Shown one piece after another: positions 11,799 to 43,510 of a stretch of DNA of 64,000 bases. Position numbers and translations under genes: made by a program. Source of the stretch: Octopus vulgaris. Lineage: Eukaryota. The DNA is taken from the NCBI GenBank assembly GCA_951406725.2, contig OX597825.1, positions 39,742,001 to 39,806,000 on the forward strand, in the 5' to 3' direction. Position 1 is the first letter of the stretch; each line of letters begins with the position of its first letter. Under the pieces are notes generated by a model. That model had not been told where the DNA came from, did no database searches, and saw nothing but the letters and a program-made list of their open reading frames with translations.

Positions 11799-11851
11799 TG
11801 ATAATAATAAGAATAATAACAATAATAATTATAATAATAATAGTAATAAAA

Positions 11852-12378
11852 AACCCTGATGCAGTACCAGTTAGTGGCTCTCATATTTTCTCATCTTAAC
11901 AGATTTGAATGATATCATGTACGTTGTTTGTCTTGGTATAAGTGATCGGCTCCAATAAATTTTCAGCTCAATACCACATATTTGGTTGTCATTTGTTTGA
12001 CCCTAACCAGTTGATTATATCCCTTAGTAGCTGACGATATGTGCATCTATAATTACGAGCATCACAGCCATATGCTGAGAGTAATTGCTTTAAGTTTGGT
12101 TAATTCAACTCTGGAACCATTGGTGTTATGTTCAGTATCCTTAAATATTCGTGACCTTTTTAGCAGGATAGGCTATTGAACCTGAAGAAAATTAATGTGC
12201 CACGCCTGCAAAGTCTTGCGCTGTTAATCTTGATATAAAATCCCTATGTCCTGCACATATTGCTGTGATGCATTTGCCTGGCGTACCCTTATCAGCCGGG
12301 TAGCCTTGATATATATACTGCGCTTCATATATTTTACTCCAGGTTCAATTTTAAGGCATGCACTGGTCCCTCACACAA

Positions 12379-12380
<2 letters not shown>
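11852..12380 (+). mobile_element. ~530-bp non-coding interspersed element next to a TAA-type tract
   Basis: Reverse-complement similarity along its length to 39533-40062 (cctgatgcagtaccag..agtggct; gtacccttatcagccgggtag). Confidence 0.75.
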
Positions 12381-12424
<44 letters not shown>

Positions 12425-17292: not shown

Positions 17293-17343
17293 GTATATAT
17301 ATTTATATATACATAAATATATAAATATATATATATAAATATA

Positions 17344-17753
17344 ATAATTAATCAATATAGGGTGGCAAACAAATTTTGTAGAATTCTTTTGCCACCAGCG
17401 GCCTAGTGGGAAAAAATTAAATAGTCATAGACCATTTTTAAGTTCAACATCAACAATCAAGGAACGGCCATAATAGGCCATTCACCCACTAGAAATAACA
17501 GCCAAAGCTTCAACCGCAAATAAAAATTAATTCCGTAAACCAGGAGAAAATTTAAAAAACATTTACCTTGTCATTTCTTATACGATATACCGTTTCATCT
17601 GCTGATTAAACGGTATATCGTATAAGAAATTACAAGGTAAATGTTTTTTAAATTTTCTCTGGTTTACGAAAATTAATTTTTATTTGCGTTTGAAGCTTTG
17701 GCTGTTATTTCTAGTGGGTGAATGGCTCATTATGGCCGTTCCTTGATTGTTGA
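17344..17753. mobile_element. Fold-back (inverted) partial copy of the 492-bp ribozyme-repeat family in (TA)n
   Basis: Arms 17450-17595 / 17608-17753; similar to 35719-35985; contains only the 3' half of the hammerhead. Confidence 0.9.
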
Positions 17754-17776: not shown

Positions 17777-20700
17777 ATTTCAACAATTGAGGGTAAAATT
17801 AATTAATTATTAATCAATTTCACCAAGTGTTCAGTATGCAAAGGGACCATTTAAGGCGAATTCAAATTATTACATTATATAAAAGGGCTTAGTAAAATAA
17901 ATTACTTTGCCGCATACTGAACTCATTAGAAATAGCAGCTAAAAAACTTTTTAAAGCTATTTCTAATACTTAAAGAAAATCTCTCTCATATAGTGTTTGC
18001 TTAACTCAACTCACAAAAGTTTGGGGGTAAGGACATCAAAAAATCAAATGCAAAGGTTATTTGAGAACGTACGTTTCAAGATTAGTCAAAACGACACTTC
18101 TATCATCAGCTCAGAAACTCCTTGGTTTGGATTTGAAAACACTGAAAGTAAGAACATACCCTTTCGGCTTCTCATCGCTTTCGAAGATCTGCTCGTAACT
18201 AACAGTGCCAACAAACTCAAATATGCAAGCGAAGAATTTCTGTTCTCCCCTTTCCACCAGCGTGGGTTAAGATCATCAAACACTATGCTTATTTCGGTAA
18301 AATCCGAAGCATTAATTAGAGGGAGATTAATTATAATTTCAACAATTGAGGGTAAAATTAATTAATTATTAATCAATTTCACCAAGTGTTCAGTATGCAA
18401 AGGGACCATTTAAGGCGAATTCAAATTCGTTTGTTGGCACTGTTAGTTACGAGCAGATCTTCGAAAGCGATGAGAAGCCGAAAGGGTATGTTCTTACTTT
18501 CAGTGTTTTCAAATCCAAACCAAGGAGTTTCTGAGCTGATGATAGAAGTGTCGTTTTGACTAATCTTGAAACGTACGTTCTCAAATAACCTTTGCATTTG
18601 ATTTTTTGATGTCCTTACCCCCAAACTTTTGTGAGTTGAGTTAAGCAAACACTATATGAGAGAGATTTTCTTTAAGTATTAGAAATAGCTTTAAAAAAGT
18701 TTTTTAGCTGCTATTTCTAATGAGTTCAGTATGCGGCAAAGTAATTTATTTTACTAAGCCCTTTTATATAATGTAATAATTTGAATTCGCCTTAAATGGT
18801 CCCTTTGCATACTGAACACTTGGTGAAATTGATTAATAATTAATTAATTTTACCCTCAATTGTTGAAATTATAATTAATCTCCCTCTAATTAATGCTTCA
18901 GATTTTACCGAAATAAGCATAGTGTTTGATGATCTTAACCCACGCTGGTGGAAAGGGGAGAACAGAAATTCTTCGCTTGCATATTTGAGTTTGTTGGCAC
19001 TGTTAGTTACGAGCAGATCTTCGAAAGCGATGAGAAGCGGAAAGGGTATGTTCTTACTTTCAGTGTTTTCAAATCCAAACCAAGGAGTTTCTGAGCTGAT
19101 GATAGAAGTGTCGTTTTGACTAATCTTGAAACGTACGTTCTCAAATAACCTTTGCATTTGATTTTTTGATGTCCTTACCCCCAAACTTTTGTGAGTTGAG
19201 TTAAGCAAACACTATACGAGAGAGATTTTCTTTAAGTATTAGAAATAGCTTTAAAAAAGTTTTTTAGCTGCTATTTCTAATGAGTTCAGTATGCGGCAAA
19301 GTAATTTATTTTACTAAGCCCTTTTATATAATGTAATAATTTGAATTCGCCTTAAATGGTCCCTTTGCATACTGAACACTTGGTGAAATTGATTAATAAT
19401 TAATTAGTTTTACCCTCAATTGTTGAAATTATAATTAATCTCCCTCTAATTAATGCTTCGGATTTTACCGAAATAAGCATAGTGTTTGATGATCTTAACC
19501 CACGCTGGTGGAAAGGGGAGAACAGAAATTCTTCGCTTGCATATTTGAGTTTGTTGGCACTGTTAGTTACGAGCAGATCTTCGAAAGCGATGAGAAGCCG
19601 AAAGGGTATGTTCTTACTTTCAGTGTTTTCAAATCCAAACCAAGGAGTTTCTGAGCTGATGATAGAAGTGTCGTTTTGACTAATCTTGAAACGTACGTTC
19701 TCAAATAACCTTTGCATTTGATTTTTTGATGTCCTTACCCCCAAACTTTTGTGAGTTGAGTTAAGCAAACACTATATGAGAGAGATTTTCTTTAAGTATT
19801 AGAAATAGCTTTAAAAAAGTTTTTTAGCTGCTATTTCTAATGAGTTCAGTATGCGGCAAAGTAATTTATTTTACTAAGCCCTTTTATATAATGTAATAAT
19901 TTGAATTCGCCTTAAATGGTCCCTTTGCATACTGAACACTTGGTGAAATTGATTAATAATTAATTAATTTTACCCTCAATTGTTGAAATTATAATTAATC
20001 TCCCTCTAATTAATGCTTCAGATTTTACCGAAATAAGCATAGTGTTTGATGATCTTAACCCACGCTGGTGGAAAGGGAGAACAGAAATTCTTCGCTTGCA
20101 TATTTGAGTTTGTTGGCACTGTTAGTTACGAGCAGATCTTCGAAAGCGATGAGAAGCGGAAAGGGTATGTTCTTACTTTCAGTGTTTTCAAATCCAAACC
20201 AAGGAGTTTCTGAGCTGATGATAGAAGTGTCGTTTTGACTAATCTTGAAACGTACGTTCTCAAATAACCTTTGCATTTGATTTTTTGATGTCCTTACCCC
20301 CAAACTTTTGTGAGTTGAGTTAAGCAAACACTATACGAGAGAGATTTTCTTTAAGTATTAGAAATAGCTTTAAAAAAGTTTTTTAGCTGCTATTTCTAAT
20401 GAGTTCAGTATGCGGCAAAGTAATTTATTTTACTAAGCCCTTTTATATAATGTAATAATTTGAATTCGCCTTAAATGGTCCCTTTGCATACTGAACACTT
20501 GGTGAAATTGATTAATAATTAATTAGTTTTACCCTCAATTGTTGAAATTATAATTAATCTCCCTCTAATTAATGCTTCGGATTTTACCGAAATAAGCATA
20601 GTGTTTGATGATCTTAACCCACGCTGGTGGAAAGGGGAGAACAGAAATTCTTCGCTTGCATATTTGAGTTTGTTGGCACTGTTAGTTACGAGCAGATCTT

Positions 20701-21571
20701 CGAAAGCGATGAGAAGCCGAAAGGGTATGTTCTTACTTTCAGTGTTTTCAAATCCAAACCAAGGAGTTTCTGAGCTGATGATAGAAGTGTCGTTTTGACT
20801 AATCTTGAAACGTACGTTCTCAAATAACCTTTGCATTTGATTTTTTGATGTCCTTACCCCCAAACTTTTGTGAGTTGAGTTAAGCAAACACTATATGAGA
20901 GAGATTTTCTTTAAGTATTAGAAATAGCTTTAAAAAAGTTTTTTAGCTGCTATTTCTAATGAGTTCAGTATGCGGCAAAGTAATTTATTTTACTAAGCCC
21001 TTTTATATAATGTAATAATTTGAATTCGCCTTAAATGGTCCCTTTGCATACTGAACACTTGGTGAAATTGATTAATAATTAATTAATTTTACCCTCAATT
21101 GTTGAAATTATAATTAATCACCCTCTAATTAATGCTTCGGATTTTACCGAAATAAGCATAGTGTTTGATGATCTTAACCCACGCTGGTGGAAAGGGGAGA
21201 ACAGAAATTCTTCGCTTGCATATTTGAGTTTGTTGGCACTGTTAGTTACGAGCAGATCTTCGAAAGCGATGAGAAGCCGAAAGGGTATGTTCTTACTTTC
21301 AGTGTTTTCAAATCCAAACCAAGGAGTTTCTGAGCTGATGATAGAAGTGTCGTTTTGACTAATCTTGAAACGTACGTTCTCAAATAACCTTTGCATTTGA
21401 TTTTTTGATGTCCTTACCCCCAAACTTTTGTGAGTTGAGTTAAGCAAACACTATATGAGAGAGATTTTCTTTAAGTATTAGAAATAGCTTTAAAAAAGTT
21501 TTTTAGCTGCTATTTCTAATGAGTTCAGTATGCGGCAAAGTAATTTATTTTACTAAGCCCTTTTATATAAT
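17777..21571. mobile_element. ~560-bp hammerhead-containing tandem array with internal inversion (retrozyme-like), flanked by (TA)n
   Basis: ~1.2 units ribozyme-minus (17777-18427), junction at 18428, ~5.6 units ribozyme-plus (18429-21571); units differ by only a few bases. Confidence 0.93.
18532..18583 (+). ncRNA. Type I hammerhead ribozyme motif, 560-bp family (also starting at 19092, 19652, 20211, 20771, 21331 on +; 18062-18113 on -)
   Basis: tgag CTGATGA [t aga..gtc gtttt gac..tct t] GAAA cgtacg TT ctca: 4-bp stem I, palindromic stem III, GUU triplet, U-U mismatch at the base of stem II. Confidence 0.72.
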
Positions 21572-22094
21572 TTATATATATATATATATATATATTGTTA
21601 TATTTCGGAATGGTCATATTGCCAGTTTAGCCAATATATATATATATATGTATACTTATAATAAGAGTAGATCGTATACGAGTGGGTATATATTTGTAAT
21701 AAAGAAATTTGAAAACGCCACTATATTAGTTAAATTTTAATTTTCTTATGAATTTTACATGTTTCGGTTCTTGAAAAAACGAACCTTATCAAAAATATTA
21801 TAAAAGGTAAAGTGTAATAGCAAAGTTCATAATTGTTTCTTACTGGTCTCAATAGAATCCATGTGGTTGTGTTTTGTCGGTAGTAGGTATAATAGCTATA
21901 AATTTCAAGTTGAGTGTAGTAAAGAAGTTCATTATTGTTTCTGAAATGGTAGCAGCAGTAGTGATTGTTGGTCGTAGTAGTAGTAACCTTGGTGGTGGTT
22001 GGGGTTGCAGCAGCTTATTGGTTGGAGCGGCTAAGTTGTGGCAGTCCTAGCAGCAGCAGTATGACCAGTGGCTTAAATGGCAGTAGTAGCAGTT

Positions 22095-23762
22095 ATTGTA
22101 TCCCTAAAGTCCACAAAAACCAAATAATTGGTGAAACATGCAAAACATATTCCGATATGCTCTTCAGAATCCCTTCACCAAATTATCTTAAACTTAGACC
22201 GATAATAGCAGGCCCAGCATGTGAAACTCACCGCCTCAGCAATTTCTTAGACACACTTCTTAAACCTTTCCTAAAGCACATCAAAAGCTACGTAAGAAAC
22301 GATATAGACATGCTTAACCACCTCCCAAAAACAGTCAATGAGAAAACCCGTGTTGTATCCTTCGACGTATTTAACCTTTATTCAAACATCCCACACACCC
22401 TAGGAATAGAAGCGATCACTTTCTGGCTAAATAACTACTCCTTTGAACTCCAAACTCGCATAAATAAAGAACTTATAATAGAAGAACTTAGATTTATTTT
22501 AGAAAAAAATTACTTTATTTTTGACAATAATTTCTACAGACAAAGATCGGGAACAGCGATGGGCACGCGTACAGCGCCTTCTTTTGCCAACCTAGAGATG
22601 GGATACCTCGAGAAAATACTCTACCAGAAAACACTCGAGAAATATGGAAACACCTTCTCCACCTATTTCCAGAACACCTGGAAAAGATGCCTCGACGACT
22701 GCTTTATCCTCTGGGATAAAGGTATAGAGAAACTTGAGGAATTTAAAATACTATTAAATGGAATAAATGATAATATTCAGTTAACGATGGATCATAACGA
22801 AGAAGAATTGCCATTTTTAGACATCATCATTAAGAAAGCCGGCAACAAAATAGAGACAGGTATCTATTATAAACCGACAGACTCCAAGCAGTACCTACCC
22901 TTTGATTCATGCCACCCAAGACACACTAGAATAAATGTCCCTTTTTCTTTAGCTAGAAGGATTTGCACCATAATATCAGACACAAACACCCGACACACAC
23001 GTCTAGGGGGAACTTAGAACTACACTCCTAAATAGAAATTATCCACAGCCCCTAATAGACAGGGCAATCCAACGAGCACTTAAATTAAGTATAGAAGACC
23101 TAAGACGAACAAAACCAAAAAAGAAAGAAAAATTAAAAACCCTTCCCTACTTCTCTACACACAACCCACTTAACAATGAGGCCTTCAGCACCATACTACA
23201 AAGCACAGCCCTACTAAAGGGAGACCCAAAGATGAACCGGATCCTCGAAACACACACCTTCATTAAAAGTAAACGGCTACCAAAAACCTTGAAAATGATT
23301 TTAACCCAAGCTAAACTGCACTAAACATCAACCATAAAACCAGCAGTTAGAAAATGTGGAAAGCCCAACTGCGGAATCTGTGTCATCTTGGTAGAAGGTT
23401 CAGAATTCACATTAGAACAAGGCCATCAGTTTACCATTAGAACAAACTTCACCTGTGCATCAGAAAACTTAATTTACGTCTTAACATGCGCATGTTGCAA
23501 TAGGCAGTATATAGGCCATACAAAAAGCAGCTTACGTAAAAGGATGGCAGTGCATAAATACCAAATTAGAAACCCTGAATACCGGAAAATACCAGTCATC
23601 GGACACATAGATAGTTTCGCTTCAAATAAAAATCCGAAATTTACAGCTTGCCCACTTTACAAATTGAGTGACAGCGTAACCTTCACTCAACGCCAAAATA
23701 AAGAACTTTACTTCATTAACAAATTTAGACCAAGTTTGAACACCATGGGCCAGGAATATTAA
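22095..23762 (+). pseudogene. Penelope-type reverse transcriptase + GIY-YIG endonuclease
   Basis: YCIPKVHK, LRPII, SFDVFNLYSNIP, YRQRSGTAMG, WKRCLDDCF, FLDI, YYKPT, SCHP; CGKPNCGIC; NLIYVLTC..C..YIGHT..LRKRM..H; premature stops near 23015 and 23322. Confidence 0.93.
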
Positions 23763-24268
23763 AACAAAACATTGGTCTTCCGAAAAGAAACATGAAATTC
23801 TACCACAACCACCACGATCACTACGACTGCTTCCACTGCTACTACAACCACTGTGGTCACTACTATTGCTGCTACGATCAACATTCCTCCACTACTGCTG
23901 CTGATACGGCCACAGCTTAACCGCTACAAACCCAACCACCATCACGGTTACCACTACTACGACCAACAGTAACTGCTACTACTGCCATTTAAGCCACTGG
24001 TCATACTGCTGCTGCTAGGACTGCCACAACTTAGCCGCTACAACCAATAAGCTGCTGCAACCCCAACCACCACCACGGTTACTACTACTACGACCAACAA
24101 TCACTATTGCTGCTAACATTTCAGAAACAATAATGAACTTCTTTACTACACTCAACTTGAAATTTATAGCTATTATACCTACTACCGACAAAACACCACC
24201 ACATGGATTCTATTGAGACCAGTAAGAAACAATTATGAACTTTGCTATTACACTTTACTTTTTATAAT

Positions 24269-24313
24269 ATTTTTGATAAGGTTCGTTTTTTCAAGAACCG
24301 AAACATGTAAAAT
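24269..24313 (+). ncRNA. Minimal hammerhead motif in the Penelope pseudo-LTR, U3-A8 core variant (inverted copy 21752-21796 on -)
   Basis: attt TTGATAA ggttc-loop-gaacc GAAA catg TA aaat. Confidence 0.78.
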
Positions 24314-24403
24314 GCATAAGAAAATTAAAATTTATCTAATATAGTGGCGTTTTCAAACTTCTTTTTTACATATATATATATTTGTATACGTATATATATA
24401 TAT

Positions 24404-24434
<31 letters not shown>

Positions 24435-24499
24435 TGTGTGTGTGTGTGAATGTACATGTGTATGTGTGTGAGTGTGTGTATGCGTGGTTGCCTTTATGC

Positions 24500-24732
24500 C
24501 TGTGTTTGTCCCCGTCACCGTTTGACAATCGTTGTTGGTCTGTTTACATCGCTGTACCTTAGCGGTTCGGTAAAAATGATCAATGGATTAAGTACTAAGA
24601 TTTAAAAAGTTGCCCTGTTGTTAGCTTATTCGACTAAAACCGTGGAAAGCATCGCTACACCATGCCACAGTCAAACGACTCAACCAAGTAAAAGAATAAA
24701 AGAATAAAAGAATAAAAGAATAAAAGAATAAA
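24500..24732 (+). mobile_element. SINE 3' half with (AAAAGAAT)n tail
   Basis: tttgacaatcgttgttggtctgtttacatc...cttagcggttcgg...ttcgactaaa; related pieces at ~30330-30450, ~47110-47270 (-) and ~55570-55715. Confidence 0.7.
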
Positions 24733-24739
24733 TGTATGA

Positions 24740-27700
24740 CTCACCGAAGACTTATACCTAAAAATGACGATGACGCGTTAGCAGTAAGAAAAAGCAGCAA
24801 GTACATCCCACTAAGATGTGACGACAAAACCATAGAATATTTCAATGAATACGTTTTAAATTAACCATAAAAACTCACAAAGAATATTACAAACTTAAGA
24901 GGATTGCCTCAGAAAATACAAAAAAATTATAAACAGATAAATAATAGTTAAGAAGGTTGATATAGAAAATGCAGTAGTCTGGAAGGACACAGAATAATAG
25001 TGTCGTATTCATAATAGGAGACAATCCATGCTATAGAAAGACGTAAAACTAAAGTAAAGAGAAAATGAGAAACACGAGGATATTAATAAACTTTTGCAGG
25101 GAAGAATTCATCAACAAAGATTACGTCAATATTACAAACTTCAGATGTACGTCTACAGTCTTGTGTGCCATACGGAAAGTACATAAACGTGGAAATATAT
25201 GTGAAACATGCAAAGAAGTCACTGACATAATACATTAATATCAGATTACCAACTGGTGTGAAACTGAAGATCGATAATAGCTTTTTTTCTAAATCACAAC
25301 CAAAAGATACTTCATAACATGACTAAGAGAAGCTAAAATTTCTCCCGAAAACACTGACCAAAATATCTTTGATAGACTCTATCGATGTAGTGAGATTTTT
25401 ATCCAAATGCTTCTTGCGACTTAACAATTGTGATCTTAAATTCTGTTTGAATAATTAAGTACGTGTTTTTCCAAAAAACGAAATACTTTATATTCAATGA
25501 CAACTTTTTAAACAAAAATCTATAGCTGCAACGTGGACGAAAACGATCCCTCTTTTGCGAATCTACTCATAGACTACCATGATATTACGTTATTGCATGA
25601 AAAATGGGAAGTTCTTTCCGCATAAGCATACAAGAAAAGTTGAAATTACCTTGAGAATTGGTTCATTCAATGGAAGGAAACACTGAGATGCTAAATGAAT
25701 TGCAAACACTTCTCACTGGAATTAATAATATTCAATTTAGTAGGAAATATAGCCCTAACGATCTCGCAATTGTTGGCATTCTAATAATGAAAGTCAATAA
25801 CCAAAAATGATAGAATCCAAACAATATCTTCCGTTCCGTTTATGCTATTCGAAACACACCAGAATAAATATCCGTTATATCCTTGCCAAAATTATTTGTA
25901 TGATAGTATTCGATACAAACATCCGTATTCTTTAATCTAGAATGACATTCAGCGAGTCAAGAAATCCAGTGCATATCTTTGTGAAAGTAAAGAGAACGAT
26001 CTAAAATAACATTGCTGGTCAACCAGGAAGTATATTGAAATTGCAAGACTCACCAAACAAGAGAACATCTTTCGAAATTTATACAGTATATTGACACGGA
26101 AACATATGGACGCATCTTAATCTGACGTCCTCATAGTCTCATAGTCTCACTACCAAGCTCATTCTACAAGAAGTTACTTCGCTGTAATTAATAAAAGAAA
26201 CCGCCAGAATTGCATATATGGAGAGGATAGTCAAAAAATTATATAAACAGGTCAAGTGTGTTCCAGTTCAAATATCGTTCAAATATTTCTTGCACATTTA
26301 AATTAAATTGTATTGCTTTCATCTAATATTTTTTATTTAGTCCATGCAATTATTTACATGGATTTCTTATTCTATTTACGTGTTAACGCATAACATTCTT
26401 CAACTACCGCATAACATTCTTCAACTATTCCAGTTGTTCTTGTTATAACACAGACGCTTCTATTTACTTTCTACGAACAAAAATGAAGCTATTTTGAATA
26501 TTTCTAATTCTCTGTAATCTGCAGGACTCATGTAGAATATACTATTTCTATGTTGTGTATTTTCGGTTATTTTTTATCATACCAGTGGCATTACTATATG
26601 ATGTGTGTTTACTGTTTGAAACTATTGCATAGATATGCACCAGAAATATTAAGATTAGTAACTGTTGTATCTATTCATCTGATGGACGTGTTTAACTGTA
26701 TATATTTTGAAATAGAAATAACATTTCACTATCACTATATAAAATAATCTGAAAAAACCCAGAACTAAAAAATGTATGAGGCATAAATGCTTCAATTATC
26801 AAAGCCCAAACAACTTACATATTCAGGTATGGACTCGGATTGTCTTCCAGCAAAAAATAATATTTTTTGTATCACTTCGTAATAATTCATGCAATAGAGT
26901 GTTACCAAACGAAATTCAAACTTGTATTTAGCATTAAAAAATCACCTTCTATGAATTGGTTATGGTATGGGTTGCATTAAATGTAGAGAATACACATTAA
27001 ATAGGTGTACGAAAATTGACAAATTATCAGTATTTACATATTAGAAATATACGATCAAACATGCAACCCCGAAGAAAATATAAAATGCTAAAATGCAAAG
27101 AGTAATTAAAAGAACCCTTATTCCTAACAGAGAAACCTTCCTGCAATCCGTTTGTCCTATAAACCTCTGACAAACAATAACCAATATATAATATTTATAA
27201 CCCATTAATAAGATTTGTTATTAAATCCAAAATTATTTTTAGATTATAATTAGAAAGTAGAAGCAATTTCATATCAAAATATTTCAAAAGATCAAGTCGT
27301 TATGAGAACATCGTTCAAGTATGTAGAAACCATAAATGGTAATTATAAAACCATGCCAGAGAGATTTGGCTGTAAACGAAGATTTATAAGACAAAGTTTC
27401 TTGAATTAAGGAGAAATAACGACATCAGATAAGTAGATCAGAGGTACCCATACTAATACTTTCCACTAGCAATTGAGGCTACAAAAGAAACAGAATTAAA
27501 TAGCAGAAATAAGATCATAACAAACTTCTCTATAATATATTTGAAGTTAAATGATAAGAAACTTGTACTTGTAAAGAAAATATGGAAACTTCTTACAAGC
27601 GTCTGTAAACACTATACCTATGTTATTATGAATAGACGATAACTAGCAAATGCAGTTTGATATCAGAGATGGATACTATGTCAACACTGTTTACCTTAGT

Positions 27701-28010
27701 AAGTGCAACCATATTTCAGTGTTGTAATAATTCCAGCAATATAGCAACAATACGAATAACATATAATTAGAAAAAAAATGAAAAGAATATTTATGTTACA
27801 GGGAAAAAAAGCAAAACATTTAATATATGGCGAAGTAATTTAAGATACACCTAACGTTAACTAGAATGCGAACAAAGTCAATAGAATTCTTGAAAAGTGA
27901 CAATGAAACAAGTTCGTAAAAATCATAACACAATGTAAGTGGAAATTGCCAAATCAAAACTGGAGAGAGGCATGAAGATATCACTAATAATTTGTAATAT
28001 AACATAGCTA
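24740..28010 (+). mobile_element. Very old decayed non-LTR (R4/Dong-like) remnants
   Basis: A-rich strand bias with faint zinc-knuckle-region resemblance near 27700; no intact frame. Confidence 0.3.
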
Positions 28011-29317
28011 GGATGATATCCTGGCTATGATATAGAAGGCCAAAATCCCTATACTGACTATATTATAGAAAACGAACATTGACCCATAAAAGTTGATTAA
28101 AATATCCTCAACAAATGGATGAAGTAGCTTGCACAGCGGTTGCAAATCCGCAAGTAAAGATTTTTGACGAAAACGTATGGGTAATTTGATGGAATATGTG
28201 CAGTTCTTTGGTGGAAGTATATAGAAAATTGATAACATCACCTGTCAACTATTGAAAATTTATTTATTAAATTTTATTTATGGCTTTATTGAGAAGCAGT
28301 ACTTGAAGAACGAGAATGTATGCATGACTTGAATGACGGCATGTGATTTCATGTGAGCTATATGACTAATAGAAAAGTTAAATAAGCATCTAATATAAGA
28401 TAAGGGGTTAAGATCAGCTACGATATGTTCGAGGATTTATGGGTGTCATCGTGCAACAACTAAATATATTTCAAGTTTTCATGCAGTTGATTTTGTATAT
28501 TATCTCTTTAGAATCGATGTTGTGAAATGTTCTAGAAGAAAATATTCCTTCAGTACAACCAAGGAACGTGGTCATAATTACAAACATTTCATCGTCTACC
28601 TACACACGGCAAGGCAATATGTGTATCTTAAAACGGTAGATAGCTTGAAAAGCTGCGTGATTGAATATGTTTGAAGGGAATAGTAAGCATTCTGCGCTTT
28701 TATATTGAAACCATATCTGTACTTAGATACATACGGAGAGTTGACATTACAATTGAAGGTGCAGAACGCAAATACGTTTTATGCAATGTGATATTAATGA
28801 TGTTAGCGCTAGAGATATACATGAAAAAGGTATCACCTAAGTATGTACAAGTAAGCTAGGCAATGACCGTTGGGTCTTAGAATTACCCTTGAGATATAAA
28901 CGAATAAGAGGACAAACAAAAGACATTACCAACAATTTTGGTAGGAATTTCATATATTTAATAAAAGTTTGACCTCTAGGTCAATTTCGCGGATTAATAT
29001 TATGAGCACGAAGATAGGTCAGAAAAAAATACAAACATACCTATCAACCTACCTTCCAAGCTACCTATATATATATAAATATATATATATAGGTGAATTG
29101 CGGAAACCATGGTTCGCTTTGTTTTCTGACTTTATAATCATTTCATAATAATGACTTTTATGACATTTATTACTACCTCAATCCATCTAAATGTATATAT
29201 TTGTCGTTACCTGTCAAAAAAAGCCTTTTTTTTTGCAATGTGCATTTTCGCTGATTTTTCATATTTTACCCTTACATATCCACGTGTAATGTTTCTTTTC
29301 TTTTTGTAACATATTTC

Positions 29318-29362
<45 letters not shown>

Positions 29363-29386
29363 CATACACACATGCATCCACCTATA

Positions 29387-30230
29387 TACAGGGCGCAATG
29401 GGTAAATTGACACTAATTTGCATTCTTAATTTTGCGCATGCGCATTGTTATTTTTTATGTTGTCGACTACAGAGCATAGTAATGTCAGTTGAAAACAGTC
29501 TGTGAGAAATACAGCACAATGACGCAATTCACTTTGCCCTAAATTTTGAAAGGACATGCTGTATTGCTTCGCTTTCGCGCCTGAAGATCCAATACGAACA
29601 CTTCCGAGTATTTGGGAGTCAACTTGAGAACAGTCCAATGTGAGAACATGTGCCTTGAGTGGTAAAAATATCCAATAAAGAGCATGGTGTTTTGAGTGAT
29701 CACTAGTGATAGCGACCTTATGCCTCCATTCATGTTCCTACACGGCCTCACTCTCCACACAGAGGCCCATATCAAGTGACTGGAGGAAGTAGCGTTGCCC
29801 TTGATCAAGTGAGTGACTGCTGAATGACACTATGTCTGGCAACAGGATTCTGCAAGATGCCATACAAACAGGGGAACCAACTCATGGCTATCAGATAATT
29901 TCTGCGACCACATCACCCCTAATATCTAGCCGCATAACTCACTAGACTGCAACCCCATTCATTATTATGAGCGAGTGACCAAGAAAATTCCGTAAAATAC
30001 CGAAGATAAATTGAAGGCTAGGATTATGGTAGCATTCACCAACTTAAACAAGGAGATCGTCCAGTAAAGTTGCAGGAGATCCCAAAGTCCTCTGAGGCCG
30101 TGGTTGAAGTGAATGTCGATTTTATTGAATAAATGTACTTTTTAGTTTTAGATATTTTTATGGAGATTTGGTAAAGATAGCTGTTAAAATGAGATGTCAT
30201 GTCATTTACAAACTTGCGTAACTTCTTATA
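29387..30230 (+). mobile_element. Decayed Tc1/mariner-superfamily deletion derivative
   Basis: TA|CAGGG terminus; WQQDSARCHT at ~29837 and an S.DCNP-like motif at ~29940. Confidence 0.7.
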
Positions 30231-30479
30231 CATGTGTGTATATATATATATGTGTGTCTGTGTGTATATGTGTGTGCGCGTGTGTATTTATGTGCTAGTA
30301 TTTATGTGTTTGTCTTTGTGTCTGTGTTTATCTCTCCAACCCTAGTTGGTGTGTTTACGTCCCCGTAAACTAGTGCTACGGCCGAAGAACCGATAGAATA
30401 AAAGCCAAGCTTAGAAAGAATTAGTCCAGGAATCGTTTTCTGCGACTAACGCGTAACCTATGATCATTTTTATGGAACA

Positions 30480-30720
30480 CCAGCAATTGTCCATGCAACC
30501 AACATTTCCTCTCCACGCCACCGATGTTATTCAAGGGAAAAACAACGGCCGGTACAGCTTATCACCAATGATGTTGCAAGTCATTTCTACAGCTGAGTGA
30601 ACTGGAGCAACATGAAAAAAAGAGGCGTGCTCAAGAACACAACACGCAGCGCTATCCGGGAATCGAACTCAACCTCAAGATCGTAAGTTGGACACTAACC
30701 ACTGAGCTATATTCCTTCAT
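30480..30720 (-). mobile_element. tRNA-derived SINE (different family)
   Basis: ctggagcaa...gctcaagaacacaac central domain and gggaatcgaactc / taaccactgagc B- and A-box complements. Confidence 0.7.
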
Positions 30721-30737
30721 TATATACATACATACAA

Positions 30738-30823
<86 letters not shown>

Positions 30824-31125
30824 ATATATCGTGAATTATATTTGCCACTTAAATGTGGCTAACCTTTAAGGGTGGATGCTACTGTAGCTTGTTGTCCCAG
30901 GAGGACACCGCCTCCAGCGGGCTATTGACACACTTTTCTGTGCCCTATGAGTATTTGCAAAGGGAAACCATTCTTCCCGTATATATATATATATATATAT
31001 AACGGGAAGCTTTATGAAAATAGACAAAAGACGAAGGTAGGTTTACGGAAATAAAGAAAAGACGAAGGCAGGTGGAATACAAACAAACAATTGTATTAGT
31101 ATGGCTTTCAGGAAATATAAATAAA

Positions 31126-31196
<71 letters not shown>

Positions 31197-31197
<1 letters not shown>

Positions 31198-31928
31198 GAG
31201 GGCATTATTACACATACATGCCACACGCTAAGAGGGACATTAGTCATTTCTACCAAAAAATTTTACTAATCATACCCAATGCAATTTTTCAAAGCAAGAC
31301 ATTTAAAAAATGAATTTAGTCTTGTATCACCTGTGATTTCGTACTTACCGCAGTTGCGACCGTACTCATCAGCAAGACTGATTCTGAACATATCATAAAT
31401 AAACGACCTCGCACCGTCAAAGCCGAACAGCTATCTGTTCTACTCTAACGAAGCACATGGGGAAGTTTACATATAATACATCCGGTAAATGGCAGGCTTC
31501 TTCGAATTGCATTTCGGATAGGAAAAGTTTTTTTGGAATATAATTATTTAACAATTAAGGATAACTTCTTAATAAGGAATCTTAACAAGAAATTATCAGG
31601 TAGATAGCGTGAAAAACCTCATAAGAGAAAACATTTCGAAAATAATTCTTTCTTATTGAACATATTACTTTATATATAGAGGGCATTATTACACATACAT
31701 GCCACACGCTAAGAGGGACATTAGTCATTTCTACCAAAAAATTTTACTAATCATACCCAATGCAATTTTTCAAAGCAAGACATTTAAAAAATGAATTTAG
31801 TCTTGTATCATCTGTGATTTCGTACTTACCGCAGTTGCGACCGTACTCATCAGCAAGACTGATTCATGCTATCTACCTGATAATTTCTTGTTAAGATTCC
31901 TTATTAAGAAGTTATCTGTAATTGTTAA

Positions 31929-31935
<7 letters not shown>
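31197..31935 (-). mobile_element. 481-bp hammerhead-containing tandem repeat (1.4 units) with a short terminal inversion, in (TA)n
   Basis: Direct repeat 31197/31678; 31864-31935 is the reverse complement of ~31541-31612. Confidence 0.9.
31318..31379 (-). ncRNA. Type I hammerhead ribozyme, 481-bp family (second copy 31799-31860)
   Basis: Minus strand: agtcttg CTGATGA gtac...gtac GAAA tca-cagg-tga TA caagact; 7-bp stem I, canonical core. Confidence 0.88.
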
Positions 31936-32000
<65 letters not shown>

Positions 32001-32003
<3 letters not shown>

Positions 32004-33013
32004 TAATACTAAGTAATTAAGGGTTTAGCAACGAATTGCCTCACCAACACACCGAATTTAGAAATAGCAGTCAAATAGATATAGCTATTCCTTCTACTAA
32101 AAGGGGGATCTCAGTAAAAACACAGCACTTGAAAGGCAAACACAGACAGGTAAGAAAGAAAGAATGAAATGACGGCAATCCATCATACAATTTTAAGTTA
32201 CCTACGGACGTACGTTTCGAAATCAAGTTTTAGGAGAGCATAAGAATTAGAAAATTCTACTTTACCCAAACTTCTTTTCTCATCGGCGCAGGATACCACA
32301 ATTATGAATAATTATATATTAAATTTTGAGATACTAGAAGGCATTATCTCAACTCAGTGTCAGAGCGAGCCAAAGCATGACCAGTACCACGAAATTCAAA
32401 GTTTGAATGAAAGTTTGTGTCACCAGCCCCCTTCCACCCGCGTGTAGCCAAGACAAAATGCTGCGGTCATTTACTGGGATAAAATATGGTTATCAGTAAT
32501 AATAAAGGGTGAAATTAATTAATTTGGAATAATTATCAATTACACCAAGTAGATTTCGGCATGTAAAAGCCCCATTCGAGGAAAATTTAAGTAATACTAA
32601 GTAATTAAGGGTTTAGCAACGAATTGCCTCACCAACACACCGAATTTAGAAATAGCAGTCAAAGAGATATAGCTATTCCTTCTACTAAAAGGGGGATCTC
32701 AGTAAAGACACAGCACTTGAAAGGCAAACACAGACAGGTAAGAAAGAAAGAATGAAATGACGGCAATCCATCATACAATTTTAAGTTACCTACGGACGTA
32801 CGTTTCGAAATCAAGTTTTAGGAGAGCATAAGAATTAGAAGATTCTACTTTACCCAAACTTCTTTTCTCATCGGCGCAGGATACCACAATTATGAATAAT
32901 TGTATATTAAATTTTGAGATACTAGAAGGCATTATCTCAACTCAGTGTCAGAGTGAGCCAAAGCATGACCAGTACCACGAAATTCAAAGTTTGAATGAAA
33001 GTTTGTGTCACCA
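32001..33013 (-). mobile_element. 588-bp hammerhead-containing tandem repeat (1.7 units) in (TA)n
   Basis: Direct repeat 32001/32589 with few differences; (TA)n on both sides. Confidence 0.9.
32201..32292 (-). ncRNA. Type I hammerhead ribozyme, 588-bp family, CCGAUGA core (second copy 32789-32880)
   Basis: Minus strand: cctgcg CCGATGA gaaa...tttc GAAA cgtacg TC cgtagg; 6-bp stem I with one G-U pair, long stem II, GUC triplet. Confidence 0.85.
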
Positions 33014-34509
33014 TATATATATATATATATATATATATTACACATTTGTAGAAACACACACACAAATATATATATGATGGCAATCTTTTCTACCATGAGG
33101 AATAGGCGCACGGCATCTGCTAGCTATGTAAACCACACCTTAAATGAAGGTTTAAGTTCAAATTTACCTAATATATCTCATGTATGATGACGATGGCCTT
33201 TATCTTTGGCCTTTATCGTCTACTGCAGTTTTAGTTCCTCTTGCTTTGTTAAAAATGCGATCTGGATGAAGTTTCGCTATACCTCCCTCTATTCCTCGAC
33301 TCCCTAATTACTTGAATTTGTTCAGCAAATATCCTTACATAAATATATTTCAGTGTAGTTTTCCAAATTTCTTTGGAGTTCAATATTACAGGATTTCTGG
33401 CGGTCTCTTTCAGGAAACATCTGACATTTGTTGTGACGTGTACTTAGGAAAATTGTCTTTGTTAGAGACTTGAGACTATTTCCTTATTTGAATGCTCACT
33501 TTTCGACAAATCTTTGAAACTTCTTGGTAAATAACTTGATATTTTATCATCGTCATTACTTTTGTTTAACTCAAGTCTGATAATTGAAAGTAAACTATTT
33601 ATTTTAAATATAAACAACATTATAAATCATATAAACTTGATCATATAAACATGCATTGATCACAAAATTAATCTTTCAAGAAAAGAAAAGTTATATGAAA
33701 GAAATAAAAAAAAAATTAAAGAAGACTTAGATAGACGCTGTGAATATTTTCTGATAAATTACTATATTAGTAATAACGGATATACAGTAGAAATTATGGA
33801 CATTATAAGCAGACAGAGAAAAATGTAAAGAATGTGTGCATAACTTAATTAGTAAATTAATGTTATCAGTTGAGCCATTGAATTTAGCAATAGAATTTAC
33901 GTAATAGAAAAGTATAAAATCTTCAATTAAAGCTCTGATAGGATAGTACATTGATTTATATTGAAAACAAAAAACGCATTTAAGCTTCTAGAATATTCAT
34001 ATTGTAGCTCAGTAATACCTCAATATTTCTCATCTGAAGAACAATTACACTTTACAAATTAAAACAAAATAAATTTCTCTCGTTAAATCGAGGCAAAAGT
34101 ATGGGAAAAGAAACAGTAAATTTACATGACCCCCGTATTTTCGTTCCATTTCGTTATTTTAGATCTTGAATTATAATGTAATGTATTAACGTAATCACAA
34201 CCCCAAATCATACACACCCATATAATGAATGATCCAACTTTTAATTTCTTTGGTTGTTATAGGTGGATAGAGTAATAACATATCGCAAAATGTGTACACC
34301 TTTATACTGAACTCAAATAAATAAAAAAAAGAAAGATAACATATACAAATAAATAAGTAATACTGTAGAAAGAGTTGTGTTCCGCAAGTAGATAGATATT
34401 GATGACAGCGCAAAGAAAACCAAAAGCAGCAACTAGGTGAGTCAAAATCCCGCGGTAGATGTTGGCATGTCATTTCATATAAAACCTACTCTAGCAAATA
34501 GTGTGAGTA

Positions 34510-34747
34510 TATACTCTTTTACTCTCTTGACTCTTTTACTTGTTTCAGGCATTTGACTATTGTCATGCTGGAGCACTGCCTTTAGTCGAGCAAATCGACC
34601 CCAGGATTTATTATTTGTAAGCCTAGTACTCACAAGGCTTTGGTCGGCCCGAGACTATAGTAGAAGACACTTTCAGAAGGTGCCACGCAGTGGGACTGAA
34701 CCCGGAACCATATGGTTGCTAAGCAAGCTACTTACCACACTCCTATG

Positions 34748-34750
<3 letters not shown>
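34510..34750 (-). mobile_element. SINE (internally deleted)
   Basis: Tail cttttacttgtttcag..catgctggagcac and tRNA-like head gtgccacgcagtgggactgaacccgg. Confidence 0.75.
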
Positions 34751-34796
<46 letters not shown>

Positions 34797-34798
<2 letters not shown>

Positions 34799-35612
34799 AT
34801 CACAACAGTTTGATACAAATTCATTGGTAATCTTGAGATTCAAACGCGATACTAGTCGTCAGCCATTGAGAATTTGAATTACTGAACTTGAATGTTATTA
34901 AGGTAAGATAGGGTGGAATTGGACTAGAAAGGTCGGAAATGGTGTCGTGGTTTGATGTTGGTATATGAGTAACAGGTAATTGGAAAACACAGCATGGCGA
35001 ACACGAAATTGACAAAGTGGAGAACAGGAAATAGATTAGAAGCCGGTCAGGTTGTTGGGGGAGTAGGACGGGGCGGCATATGCAAGTATATAGTTCTATA
35101 TTGTGGGTGTGCAGACGTGCCCGTATACTTTTGCATGCATGTATGCGAATATGCGAATGTACATATGAATGAATAAGCATGTGTGTATGAGCCTATGTAC
35201 GTACATGTGTGTATAAGCGTGTGTATGTGTGTGCAGACGCGCGTGTGCGTACAGATTCACACATGGGTATCAATATACACATGCACGAAAAATTATATTA
35301 GAGTCTGTGCACACCCAGATATATACTAGCAAATGCCCCCCTCCTACTTACATCCAACAACCTGACCGACTAATAGTCTATTTCTTGTCCACGTGGTCAA
35401 TATTCTGCTCTCTATGCATTATTTTCCAACTAACATTTACCCATTTACCAACATAAAACCACGATATCGCATAACCTTCCTCGACCAATCGCAGATCACC
35501 TTACGGTAATAATAATCAACTTCTGTCTTCGAAATTCGAAATAGCTGACGACTAGCATCACGCTTCCACCTACAGCGTACAATCGAAATTGAATCAAGCT
35601 GTTGTGATCCAT
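34797..35612. repeat. Diverged ~270-bp inverted repeat flanked by (TA)n
   Basis: Arms ~34797-35065 / ~35335-35612 (ggatcacaacag / ctgttgtgatcc; ggtcaggttgttgg / ccaacaacctgacc). Confidence 0.8.
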
Positions 35613-35665
35613 TCATGTAACTTCCAATACACTGGTTGTATGCCTTTCTTTCGTTCGACCACTCA

Positions 35666-35718
<53 letters not shown>

Positions 35719-35721
<3 letters not shown>

Positions 35722-38700
35722 ATCAATATAGGGTGGCAAAAAAAAAATTTTGTAGAATTCTTTTGCCACCAGCGGCCTAGTGGGAAAAAATTAAATAGTC
35801 ATAAACCATTTTTAAGTTCAACATCACAATCAAGGAACGGCCATAATAGGCCATTCACCCACTAGAAATAACAGCCAAAAGCTTTAACCGCAAAATAACA
35901 TCAATTCCGTAAACCAGGAGAAAATTAAAAAACATTTACCCTGTAATTTCTTAGACGATGCACCGTTTCATCTACTGTTTAATGGTAAACTAACCTGATT
36001 AAATTAAATCAAGCCAATCTACCATAGGCCCTTAGATTCATCAGTAAGAAATAGCCAAGTCGGAACAGATATTTTTCACGAGGCATTCCCGTTGCTACCT
36101 CGGCAATATCTGACCTAAAATTTTCAAATCGTCGCACTCGCGCCAAATTTATCGGCAGCAAATAAATATAAGCCGCCGATTCCATTACGGAATTAACCAG
36201 AAAATTCATAATTAATCAATATAGGGTGGCAAAAAAAAAATTTGTAGAATTCTTTTGCCACCAGCGGCCTAGTGGGAAAAAATTAAATAGTCATAAACCA
36301 TTTTTAAGTTCAACATCACAATCAAGGAACGGCCATAATAGGCCATTCACCCACTAGAAATAACAGCCAAAAGCTTTAACCGCAAAATAACATCAATTCC
36401 GTAAACCAGGAGAAAATTAAAAAACATTTACCCTGTAATTTCTTAGACGATGCACCGTTTCATCTACTGTTTAATGGTAAACAAACCTGATTAAATTAAA
36501 TCAAGCCAATCTACCATAGGCCCTTAGATTCATCAGTAAGAAATAGCCAAGTCGGAACAGATATTTTTCACGAGGCATTCCCGTTGCTACCTCGGCAATA
36601 TCTGACCTAAAATTTTCAAATCGTCGCACTCGCGCCAAATTTATCGGCAGCAAATAAATATAAGCCGCCGATTCCATTACGGAATTAACCAGAAAATTCA
36701 TAATTAATCAATATAGGGTGGCAAAAAAAAAATTTTGTAGAATTCTTTTGCCACCAGCGGCCTAGTGGGAAAAAATTAAATAGTCATAAACCATTTTTAA
36801 GTTCAACATCACAATCAAGGAACGGCCATAATAGGCCATTCACCCACTAGAAATAACAGCCAAAAGCTTTAACCGCAAAATAACATCAATTCCGTAAACC
36901 AGGAGAAAATTAAAAAACATTTACCCTGTAATTTCTTAGACGATGCACCGTTTCATCTACTGTTTAATGGTAAACTAACCTGATTAAATTAAATCAAGCC
37001 AATCTACCATAGGCCCTTAGATTCATCAGTAAGAAATAGCCAAGTCGGAACAGATATTTTTCACGAGGCATTCCCGTTGCTACCTCGGCAATATCTGACC
37101 TAAAATTTTCAAATCGTCGCACTCGCGCCAAATTTATCGGCAGCAAATAAATATATGCCGCCGATTCCATTACGGAATTAACCAGGAAATTCATAATTAA
37201 TCAATATAGGGTGGCAAAAAAAAAAAAAAAATTTTGTAGAATTCTTTTGCCACCAGCGGCCTAGTGGGAAAAAAATTAAATAGTCATAAACAATTTTTAA
37301 GTTCAACATCACAATCAAGGAACGGCCATAATAGGCCATTCACCCACTAGAAATAACAGCCAAAAGCTTTAACCGCAAAATAACATCAATTCCGTAAACC
37401 AGGAGAAAATTAAAAAACAGTTACCCTGTAATTTCTTAGACGATGCACCGTTTCATCTACTGTTTAATGGTAAACTAACCTGATTAAATTAAATCAAGCC
37501 AATCTACCATAGGCCCTTAGATTCATCAGTAAGAAATAGCCAAGTCGGAACAGATATTTTTCACGAGGCATTCCCGTTGCTACCTCGGCAATATCTGACC
37601 TAAAATTTTCAAATCGTCGCACTCGCGCCAAATTTATCGGCAGCAAATAAATATAAGCCGCCGATTCCATTACGGAATTAACCAGAAAATTCATAATTAA
37701 TCAATATAGGGTGGCAAAAAAAAATTTTGTAGAATTCTTTTGCCACCAGCGGCCTAGTGGGAAAAAATTAAATAGTCATAAACCATTTTTAAGTTCAACA
37801 TCACAATCAAGGAACGCCCATAATAGGCCATTCACCCACTAGAAATAACAGCCAAAAGCTTTAACCGCAAAATAACATCAATTCCGTAAACCAGGAGAAA
37901 ATTAAAAAACATTTACCCTGTAATTTCTTAGACGATGCACCGTTTCATCTACTGTTTAATGGTAAACTAACCTGATTAAATTAAATCAAGCCAATCTACC
38001 ATAGGCCCATAGATTCATCAGTAAGAAATAGCCAAGTCGGAACAGATATTTTTCACGAGGCACTCCCGTTGCTACCTCGGCAATATCTGACGTAAAATTT
38101 TCAAATCGTCGCACTCGCACTATATTGATTAATTATGAATTTTCTGGTTAATTCCGTAATGGAATCGGCGGCTTATATTTATTTGCTGATGATAAATTTG
38201 GCGCGAGTGCGACGATTTGAAAATTTTAGGTCAGATATTGCCGAGGTAGCAACGGGAATGCCTCGTGAAAAATATCTGTTCCGACTTGGCTATTTCTTAC
38301 TGATGAATCTAAGGGCCTATGGTAGATTGGCTTGATTTAATTTAATCAGGTTAGTTTACCATTAAACAGTAGATGAAACGGTGCATCGTCTAAGAAATTA
38401 CAGGGTAAATGTTTTTTAATTTTCTCCTGGTTTATGGAATTGATGTTATTTTGCGGTTAAAGCTTTTGGCTGTTATTTCTAGTGGGTGAATGGCCTATTA
38501 TGGCCGTTCCTTGATTGTGATGTTGAACTTAAAAATGGTTTATGACTATTTAATTTTTTCCCACTAGGCCGCTGGTGGCAAAAGAATTCTACAAAATTTT
38601 TTTTTTGCCACCCTATATTGATTAATTATGAATTTTCTGGTTAATTCCGTAATGGAATCGGCGGCTTATATTTATTTGCTGCCGATAAATTTGGCGCGAG

Positions 38701-39013
38701 TGCGACGATTTGAAAATTTTAGGTCAGATATTGCCGAGGTAGCAACGGGAATGCCTCGCGAAAAATATCTGTTCCGACTTGGCTATTTCTTACTGATGAA
38801 TCTAAGGGCCTATGGTAGATTGGCTTGATTTAATTTAATCAGGTTAGTTTACCATTAAACAGTAGATGAAACGGTGCATCGTCTAAGAAATTACAGGGTA
38901 AATGTTTTTTAATTTTCTCCTGGTTTACGGAATTGATGTTATTTTGCGGTTAAAGCTTTTGGCTGTTATTTCTAGTGGGTGAATGGCCTATTATGGCCGT
39001 TCCTTGATTGTGA
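35719..39013. mobile_element. ~492-bp hammerhead-containing tandem array with internal inversion (retrozyme-like), flanked by (TA)n
   Basis: ~4.9 units ribozyme-minus (35719-38118), junction at 38119, ~1.8 units ribozyme-plus (38120-39013). Confidence 0.94.
38292..38398 (+). ncRNA. Type I hammerhead ribozyme, 492-bp family (also 38785-38891 on +; 35946-36052, 36438-36544, 36931-37037, 37431-37537, 37923-38029 on -)
   Basis: atttctta CTGATGA atcta[58-nt hairpin insert]tagat GAAA cgg-tgca-tcg TC taagaaat: perfect 8-bp stem I, canonical core, GUC. Confidence 0.93.
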
Positions 39014-43100: not shown

Positions 43101-43510
43101 GAGACTTGACAATGCATATTCTCAGGAAAAATATTCTGAATCTGCTTCACTGTCAATGCTCAAAATGCACGGGAAGAAATATGTTTGCGGGTTATTAACA
43201 TCAGGCACTGGATGAATGATAAAAAATTACCGGACTTGATCATTAGTATTGAATGACCATAGTTTAATTATGGTAAAGATAATATTTTTCTTTTCGCCAT
43301 TTATAAAATTGAAACTTACAGACTGATGATGTCATTCGATGAACGTGTGGATATTGGTTGCTCTGCTTCATTCTTTAGATATTAATCTTTGTAATTTTGG
43401 AGTTTTATCACTTTTTATTTTGAACTCGACAAAGGCTTGCTGTGGAGATATTGTTGAACTAATACAATATCTATTGCAATCGAGTCGCGGTCTTCCTTTT
43501 CTGTTTACAA
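40165..43510 (+). mobile_element. Old Penelope-like element with an inverted copy of its GIY-YIG/3' region at the 5' side, between (ATT)n tracts
   Basis: FYSLPKIHK ~41613, ATGNPMAVNFAN, WLRSIDDVF, LVYEAE..LIYVGCTTEQLNKRF; 40165-41170 is a diverged reverse complement of ~42670-43510. Confidence 0.88.

Follow-up and report, generated by a model that had tools for sequence, protein, structure and literature searches.

Hammerhead retrozymes of Octopus vulgaris share a folded module that probably acts as an RNA signal, positioning both starts of a Penelope-type reverse transcriptase (RT) that primes on the two strands of a (TA)n target. We find the module in at least 17 hammerhead-retrozyme families, well beyond the three (560, 492 and 588) present in the window, the 64,000-nucleotide stretch of DNA analysed here.

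A structured module downstream of the hammerhead

Every tandem unit of the 560, 492 and 588 families carries a type I hammerhead, as do further families; the Rfam gathering-score search of the window misses these ribozymes. The units are 553-618 and 493 bp long with a GC content of 0.33-0.37, and are non-coding apart from a stop-to-stop frame of 123 codons in 560, on the opposite strand. The unit is covered by four contig sets whose RNA status is a guess. The repeats are best read as non-autonomous hammerhead retrozymes, probably moved by a Penelope-like element (PLE).

In each of the three families, a conserved 17-mer follows on the hammerhead strand, 123 (560), 74 (492) and 131 nt (588) from the cleavage site, which replaces the spacing of about 65-125 nt given in the initial annotation. 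It has 36,884 genome matches versus 5 for a reversed control, and the window holds 18 exact matches where 0.27 are expected. The 17-mer pairs with an upstream TAGAAATAGC arm to form stem P0. Behind it come a long-range stem and two hairpins, both of which end in CCT: hairpin 1 sits inside the long-range stem, and hairpin 2 is the TGGTG...ACCCT hairpin (Table 1). The modules fold far better than their shuffles (z -8.3, -4.9 and -3.0). In 492, the 17-mer also resembles hammerhead stem I, with which it could compete.

Much of this had been anticipated from the letters alone. The 17-mer lies at all three places where it had been reported, and the three families do have the long-range stems and the TGGTG...ACCCT hairpin; the single hairpin described after the stem is our hairpin 2, while hairpin 1 and P0 had been missed. 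The 588 17-mer at 32059-32075 is real, but that copy breaks off after hairpin 1, missing both hairpin 2 and the partner strand of the stem. The families had been called otherwise dissimilar, with a stem sequence differing in each. This is correct for 492, whose unit is at background identity (39-45%), but overstated for 560 and 588, whose stems belong to one sequence family (TTCRGTRTG/CAYRYYGAA) and whose units are homologous and colinear (56% identity, against a mean of 39% and a maximum of 45% for shuffles).

Table 1 Features of the retrozyme insertions and their neighbour in the window.
Feature	Position	Strand	Remark
Small head-to-head 492-type insertion	17338..17752	.	left end behind hairpin 2, right behind hairpin 1
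560-family insertion, inverted arm	17779..18428	-	3' end 11 nt behind hairpin 2, adjoins (TA)n
560-family insertion, tandem arm, 560-bp units	18429..21572	+	3' end 11 nt behind hairpin 1, adjoins (TA)n
Type I hammerhead, one 560 unit	18532..18583	+	core CTGATGA 18536, cleavage after 18579, palindromic helix III
Stem P0	18680..18719	+	TAGAAATAGC arm 18680-18689 pairs with 17-mer 18703-18719
560 long-range stem	18724..18817	+	18724-18734 with 18807-18817
560 hairpin 1	18735-18762	+	ends GCCCT, enclosed by long-range stem
560 putative start site 1 and variable hairpin	about 18763-18780 (site)	+	both enclosed by long-range stem
560 hairpin 2 (TGGTG...ACCCT)	18821..18856	+	putative start site 2 next, about 18857-18875
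Neptune-type PLE, 5'-truncated, frameshifted	21634..24380	+	RT 22079-23014, GIY-YIG 23325-23759
588-family insertion	32002..33011	-	3' end 18 nt behind hairpin 1
588 hammerheads	32874 and 32286	-	
Complete 588 module	32663-32506	-	stem 32644-32635 with 32564-32555
492-family insertion, inverted tandem arm	35719..38119	-	3' end 11 nt behind hairpin 2
492-family insertion, + arm	38120..39012	+	3' end 8 nt behind last hairpin 1
492 + arm, hammerhead	38292-38398	+	
492 + arm, 17-mer	38465-38481	+	
492 + arm, long-range stem	38479-38486 with 38560-38567	+	
492 + arm, hairpin 1	ends 38511	+	
492 + arm, hairpin 2	38573-38614	+	

Covariation supports the architecture. In pair counts over an alignment of 17 families, which are related by descent, 80.6% of cells are paired (slid controls 38-55%) and the stems hold 25 double changes versus 12.9 when shuffled. 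In the 492 clade alone (5 sequences), double changes occur in 14 of 34 predicted pairs, and in 4 of 9 pairs of the long-range stem. P0 shows one-sided changes only in the 17-family counts, the small middle hairpin fails the pairing test in that alignment (36.5% paired), and pair-type counts are no better than shuffles (115/500, 234/500). RNAalifold on the full alignment recovers only the long-range stem. Rfam covariance models gave no match at gathering score within the window, and in 10 loci gave only microsatellite-driven matches and one tRNA; a PDB sequence search returned no match. With covariation and no Rfam counterpart, the description of an unknown structured RNA motif holds.

Insertion ends lie behind the two hairpins, one at each

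We mapped 148 ends in 74 microsatellite-bounded insertions, picked through the motif and nearly all from one chromosome arm: 117 were assignable 3' ends, 20 were 5' truncations and 11 were left unassigned. With hairpin offsets and end windows fixed after the data were seen, 112 of the 117 lie 1-31 nt behind hairpin 1 (60) or hairpin 2 (52), at a median of 11 nt for each hairpin. Two outward 3' ends, on head-to-head inverted arms, are present in 44 of the 74 insertions; 37 of these join a hairpin 1 end to a hairpin 2 end, 2 use the same site twice and 5 have one off-site end. Collapsing near-duplicates leaves 33 one-of-each and 2 same-site insertions (n=35, p 2e-8 against a coin toss), and three later insertions from other families (L247, L248 and L119) all fit by eye. 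A tail of 92-131 nt is present at one end only in 37 of the 44. (TA)n flanks, the AT-rich kind of target expected of a PLE, occur in the window and loci, the counted set itself having been chosen as microsatellite-bounded. Arm lengths within one insertion correlate (rho 0.67, n=33), as expected if copying is concerted.

PMC11167929 describes a PLE RT that, in vitro, starts within its RNA at two sites 3' of the hammerhead and uses each strand of an AT-rich DNA as primer. By this analogy, the octopus insertion ends would be RT start sites. Because one end falls shortly behind each of the two hairpins, an RT recognition element is the option that we favour among those first put forward; the internal promoter finds no support.

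The ends could instead be set by microhomology between AT-rich sites and (TA)n, the module being common descent from one ancestral pLTR and its folding serving hammerhead regulation or circular-RNA stability. The whole-unit homology of 560 and 588, the AT-rich, unpaired character of the end sites and the stem I resemblance of the 492 17-mer fit this account. However, dozens of other windows per unit are at least as (TA)-like as the two end sites, and many of them are never used, so AT-richness alone does not pick them, and TA-microhomology as their sole cause is not supported. Nor does microhomology predict one end per site, and 492 retains both architecture and end rule despite its background identity elsewhere. 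We regard this account as improbable.

An older explanation has the GIY-YIG nuclease read the module as DNA or cDNA and trim the intermediate at two places, leaving the tail. In PMC8557442 the tail is put down to resolution by the nuclease, PMC11167929 notes that tail DNA was required by the D. virilis nuclease, and the 17-mer is conserved by sequence, not covariation. The G-U-type one-sided and double changes in the stems nevertheless fit single-stranded RNA, and the two ends were RT start sites in vitro in PMC11167929; we consider trimming a very improbable origin of the ends.

The 17-mer outside the retrozymes

Among the first 30 unselected genome matches of the 17-mer, 16 lie in an older repeat without a hammerhead, and the word also occurs in a 107-bp minisatellite; both lack the hammerhead and the two hairpins. 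Together with the autonomous PLE ends, which have no 17-mer, this could mean that the 17-mer is a separate signal (a promoter, a host-protein site or splice-acceptor-like), leaving only the hairpins for the RT, or that a LINE-class enzyme is the mover. The 36 nt after the 17-mer in the old repeat resemble the 492 clade (0/2000 shuffles), and L364 is a bridging old copy that carries the stem and hairpin 2; the old repeat may therefore share the retrozyme lineage. A profile of it with the 17-mer masked found no match in retrozyme units, so the kinship rests on short alignments. The splice-acceptor reading is rejected, since the 17-mer ends in CTAA, not AG, in most families; a separate CACGCNGGTGGAA box is a better promoter candidate, and a tail on head-to-head arms is characteristic of PLEs. 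Taken as a whole, a separate role for the 17-mer, or a LINE mover, seems unlikely to us.

Autonomous Penelope elements follow the same end rule

A very young 775-aa Neptune-type family (the label covers Neptune or Nematis here) serves as a positive control: in 8 of 8 of its inverted insertions a short end is paired with a long one, and a 781-aa family does the same in the 3 observed. The difference between the ends is the tail known from PLEs, whose limits in vitro are two internal RT start sites (PMC11167929). The PLE of the window, a neighbour outside the module, likewise has inverted ends, one long and one short.

The initial annotation had suggested scanning the genome, above all the 3' UTRs and pLTRs of autonomous Penelope elements, for the module. 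It is absent from the 10 Neptune-type 3' ends searched, where motif scores are weak (best p 0.02-0.05, uncorrected); CTRYTATTTC-like words near some of them lose significance after 20 tests. In 94 PLE loci, an incomplete sample of PLE families, each HMM-profile match is a separate nested retrozyme or a single chimera (L128, in which a hairpin-2 end is seamlessly joined to a Neptune ORF), and no pLTR homology was found in these loci or the 10 ends. No module was found in the window PLE and its 781/785-aa relatives, in the GIY-YIG family search and the 775-aa family, or in an autonomous element in the flanks of L110 and L017. A protein homologue search returned PLE relatives only, and viral contigs gave 0 matches. 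A metagenome scan with a shortened pattern returned at least 115 stretches, with one 17-mer-like prefix and no profile match among the matches listed.

Discussion

In the reading that we prefer, the retrozymes would be moved by a PLE RT/GIY-YIG nuclease, and the module would be that enzyme's RNA signal. The 17-mer and the two hairpins, each closed GG.../...CCT and kept adjacent by the long-range stem, presumably are where protein binds (hairpins or 17-mer), and would set two internal starts, each some 11 nt past its hairpin. Probably acting as a dimer, the enzyme would nick a (TA)n tract on both strands, of which one would prime at site 1 and its partner at site 2; the insertion would thus have its arms head to head and a tail of 92-131 nt at just one of its ends, and tandem arms would come from copying of multimeric or circular RNA. 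More tentatively, and possible rather than probable, the module may serve a dimeric RT related to telomerase as a bipartite RNA origin, with one subunit per CCT-closed hairpin and concerted priming on a single, possibly circular RNA; here both the dimer geometry and the single template are presumed.

A close parallel is the internal RT initiation region of Poseidon_Ac, a PLE of Anolis, for which PMC11167929 describes two internal starts downstream of a hammerhead, an AT-rich target, priming of both strands, and a genomic tail equal to the stretch between the start sites. Poseidon_Ac has an AC-rich stem-loop within the autonomous ORF and a 30-40 nt tail, whereas the octopus module is non-coding, with two similar CCT-closed hairpins, a long-range stem, the 17-mer and a 92-131 nt tail, about three times the reported PLE length. 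EN+ PLEs (Penelope/Poseidon, Neptune, Nematis and Naiad) also share an inverted 5'-truncated arm, a one-end tail and a microsatellite bias (PMC8557442, PMC3846280); the same papers describe a pLTR that is enough for mobilisation in trans. The octopus tail is three times longer than theirs, and no autonomous pLTR matching the retrozymes turned up in the ends and loci searched.

Metazoan non-LTR retrozymes, as covered by the available portions of PMC7229834 and bioRxiv 10.64898/2026.07.22.740005, likewise consist of non-coding units in tandem, each with a single type I hammerhead, and have a GC content of 33-37% and a proposed PLE partner. The octopus units (474-618 bp) are above the 170-400 and within the 51-972 range given there, and differ in having arms joined head to head, two defined ends and insertion into (TA)n; those portions describe no common cis-element or end rule.

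The module bears on RNA recognition by PLE RTs, on their double internal starts and on the mover of animal retrozymes, and its junctions support retrozymes as PLE cargo independently of sequence homology. In SINE-LINE pairs, a shared 3' stem-loop lets a non-autonomous RNA borrow an RT through conserved structure. There the start is at the RNA 3' end, whereas the putative starts of the octopus module are internal and double. If the bipartite origin is true, about 200 nt would suffice to turn any RNA into PLE cargo, and an eroded form of the signal would persist in the older hammerhead-less repeat. With a covarying structure, a hairpin before each putative start, thousands of copies and near-strict pairing of ends, mutagenesis and structural experiments become direct: a folded element appears to mark the two start places of a Penelope-type RT, which gives a testable picture of its signal.

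The 17-mer and the families that carry it

The initial annotation placed a 17-nt motif, TTTRRCTGYTATTTCTA, downstream of the hammerhead in three retrozyme families, 560, 492 and 588, and the motif is present at all three positions. In every unit of these families a type I hammerhead shares the strand of the motif and lies upstream of it, as described; the spacing can be given more exactly, with cleavage falling 123 (560), 74 (492) and 131 nt (588) before the 17-mer. The 588 copy originally cited contains the 17-mer but stops after the first hairpin of the module; a complete 588 module lies elsewhere in the window.

Occurrence at background frequency is contradicted by the counts: the window holds 18 exact matches against 0.27 expected, and the genome (2.8 Gb, 227 contigs) 36,884, where the reversed pattern gives 5. 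A longer pattern of 17-mer and start of stem returned 12,728 genome matches and a 492-like variant 312, with 0 for each control.

The families had been considered otherwise dissimilar. This holds for 492, whose unit identity to the others is at background level, but not for 560 and 588, whose units are colinear and 56% identical (shuffled 39%, maximum 45%). On these comparisons we assign the three to one superfamily with two deep clades, rather than to three unrelated families. A second conserved box, a CACGCNGGTGGAA-purine run common to families 560, 588, 594, 208 and 002, is a promoter candidate. In 492, the 5' strand of hammerhead stem I resembles the 17-mer, so the 5' end left by cleavage could pair with the 17-mer instead.

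The motif also occurs outside retrozymes: 16 of the first 30 unselected matches lie in an old dispersed repeat of ~250 bp, which also seeds a 107-bp minisatellite carrying the 17-mer. In these repeats (L159-L188, contigs C29 and C30) no hammerhead was detected and the 17-mer folds as a CTGCTA-TTTC-TAGCAG hairpin. The old repeat is likely akin to module-bearing retrozymes: over the 36 nt behind the 17-mer it matches the 492 clade (0/2000 shuffles), with no match to 560 or 588, and an old copy, L364, bridges retrozyme and hammerhead-less forms. A masked profile search for this kinship returned no matches.

Features of the window
Feature	Position	Strand	Remarks
17-mer, 560	18703-18719		
17-mer, 492	38465-38481		
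17-mer, 588	32059-32075	reverse complement	
Complete 588 module	32663-32506		
CACGCNGGTGGAA-purine box	18943-18959		equivalents in other units
492 stem I, resemblance to the 17-mer	38282-38299, 38391-38403		
Broken RT + GIY-YIG PLE, Neptune-type	21634-24380		5'-truncated, frameshifted; same (TA)n tract as 560 array
Fourth hammerhead family	31184-31938	minus	type I, cores 31853 and 31372; inverted end; without 17-mer; relative in locus L126
PLE-like element, old, heavily decayed	40189-43494		inverted arm at the nuclease end; arms 74% identical
Several truncated non-LTR copies, LINE-type (RVT_1 + zf-RVT)	491-12392		inserted in (AAT)n tracts

Structure of the module

The module is a real, structured and widespread cis-element. 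We folded a single copy per family for 17 families, and also the three window copies; for the latter the z scores against shuffles are -8.3, -4.9 and -3.0. An upstream arm pairs with the 17-mer in most families, weakly in the 492 clade. After the 17-mer a long-range stem opens and encloses hairpin 1 (GGY, a small internal loop, a stem-loop and RCCCT), then an AT-rich stretch without pairing, and a variable hairpin before closing; 3' of the stem come hairpin 2 (TGGT...ACCCT) and another AT-rich tract.

Sequence changes that keep the pairing are seen in the stems. In the 17-family alignment, double changes number 25 against 12.9 when shuffled (0/500 shuffles), and 80.6% of cells are paired against 38-55% for slid partners, a count biased towards the structure, which was derived from one member. 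In the same alignment covarying pairs and pair types are no more numerous than in shuffles, the middle hairpin is unsupported (36.5% paired), and the stem of the 17-mer shows one-sided changes only. RNAalifold recovers only the long-range stem from this alignment, in which both 492-clade rows are misaligned; for the 492 clade alone (5 sequences) the stem and both hairpins are recovered, with double changes in 14 of 34 pairs. Rfam returned no match to the module.

Insertion ends behind the two hairpins

All microsatellite-bounded segments with the module, from the window and the sampled loci, were collected (74 segments, 148 ends); 20 ends are 5' truncations, 11 are unassigned and 117 are outward 3' ends. 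With end windows set after inspecting the data, and in a sample obtained through the motif, most of whose loci lie within the initial 17 Mb of a single chromosome, 60 of the 117 lie 2-31 nt behind hairpin 1 and 52 lie 1-25 nt behind hairpin 2 (median 11 in both), with five elsewhere. The tail between the two sites is 92-131 nt, and a CCT-closed hairpin stands 11 nt upstream of each end.

Two 3' ends are present in 44 head-to-head insertions: 37 of these place one behind each hairpin, two use the same site twice, and in five one end is off-site. The 37 include five near-copies that stem from a single event; with four removed, one-of-each exceeds same-site use by 33 to 2 (p 2e-8). The rule is followed by 3/3 such insertions in the window and by 3/3 further insertions from other families or chromosomes. 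Each unit has 32-204 other stretches at least as (TA)-like as the end sites. Arm lengths within an insertion correlate (rho 0.67), and the farther-reaching arm has no consistent side (16/33 after correcting for the tail).

Comparison with autonomous PLEs

The window PLE has a U3-A8-type hammerhead core, one long and one short end, and belongs to a family that has numerous intact copies of 781 aa and bears the Neptune/Nematis linker cysteine motif, as described in PMC8557442. Near-identical 775-aa copies form a second autonomous family. Both families lie in (TA)n, with variant hammerheads and a short and a long end; inverted insertions pair one of each in 8/8 cases for the 775-aa family (tail ~32 nt), as do 3/3 insertions seen for the 781-aa family (tail ~40 nt). 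The module is absent from both (10 autonomous 3' ends, best p 0.02-0.05 uncorrected), and its matches in a profile search of 94 PLE loci are separate retrozymes.

The 775-aa Neptune-type family (L229-L245) is very young: over 162 aa, all 150 copies scored show 99-100% identity. Beyond its long end lie (TA)7 and an upstream ORF; the tandem period is ~4.3 kb. The 781-aa 3' UTRs (L111-L121) carry repeated CCAAT and TGACGTC boxes ahead of a TATA-like word, an array that is likely the pLTR promoter.

At locus L128, a hairpin-2 end is fused directly to a 781-type ORF, and its inverted arm carries further hairpin-1 ends. Positions 2153-6007 form a single composite insertion in which two retrozyme families and a Neptune ORF adjoin with no (TA)n between them; every junction lies at or close to a hairpin-1 or hairpin-2 end. 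Read as a template switch, this one case suggests that retrozymes and PLEs share machinery.

A proposed two-site start signal

PMC11167929 reports that a purified PLE protein, for which a dimer model is given, nicks both strands of AT-rich DNA and extends them; synthesis begins at two sites within the RNA, downstream of the hammerhead, and the genomic tail is the interval between these sites. According to PMC8557442 and PMC3846280, PLEs have an inverted arm, a tail of 30-40 nt at one of their ends, and pLTRs that mediate mobilisation in trans. The retrozyme end pattern matches this signature but differs in its longer tail. The best reading, which we consider probable, is that in retrozymes mobilised by PLEs the module is the start signal for two sites. 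The hairpins and 17-mer would load the RT, the long-range stem would set the spacing of the hairpins, and each nicked target strand would use one start site; protein binding, dimer geometry, one RNA serving both arms and circular templates are likewise presumed.

Non-LTR retrozymes (PMC7229834), their link to PLEs (bioRxiv 10.64898/2026.07.22.740005) and U3-A8 hammerhead variants (PMC4209133) have been described. Literature searches, with Repbase entries and subscription journals outside their scope, returned no description of the module or of the end rule in retrozymes. The pathway is known; the twin-hairpin structure, the long tail and the one-of-each rule in retrozymes appear to be new.
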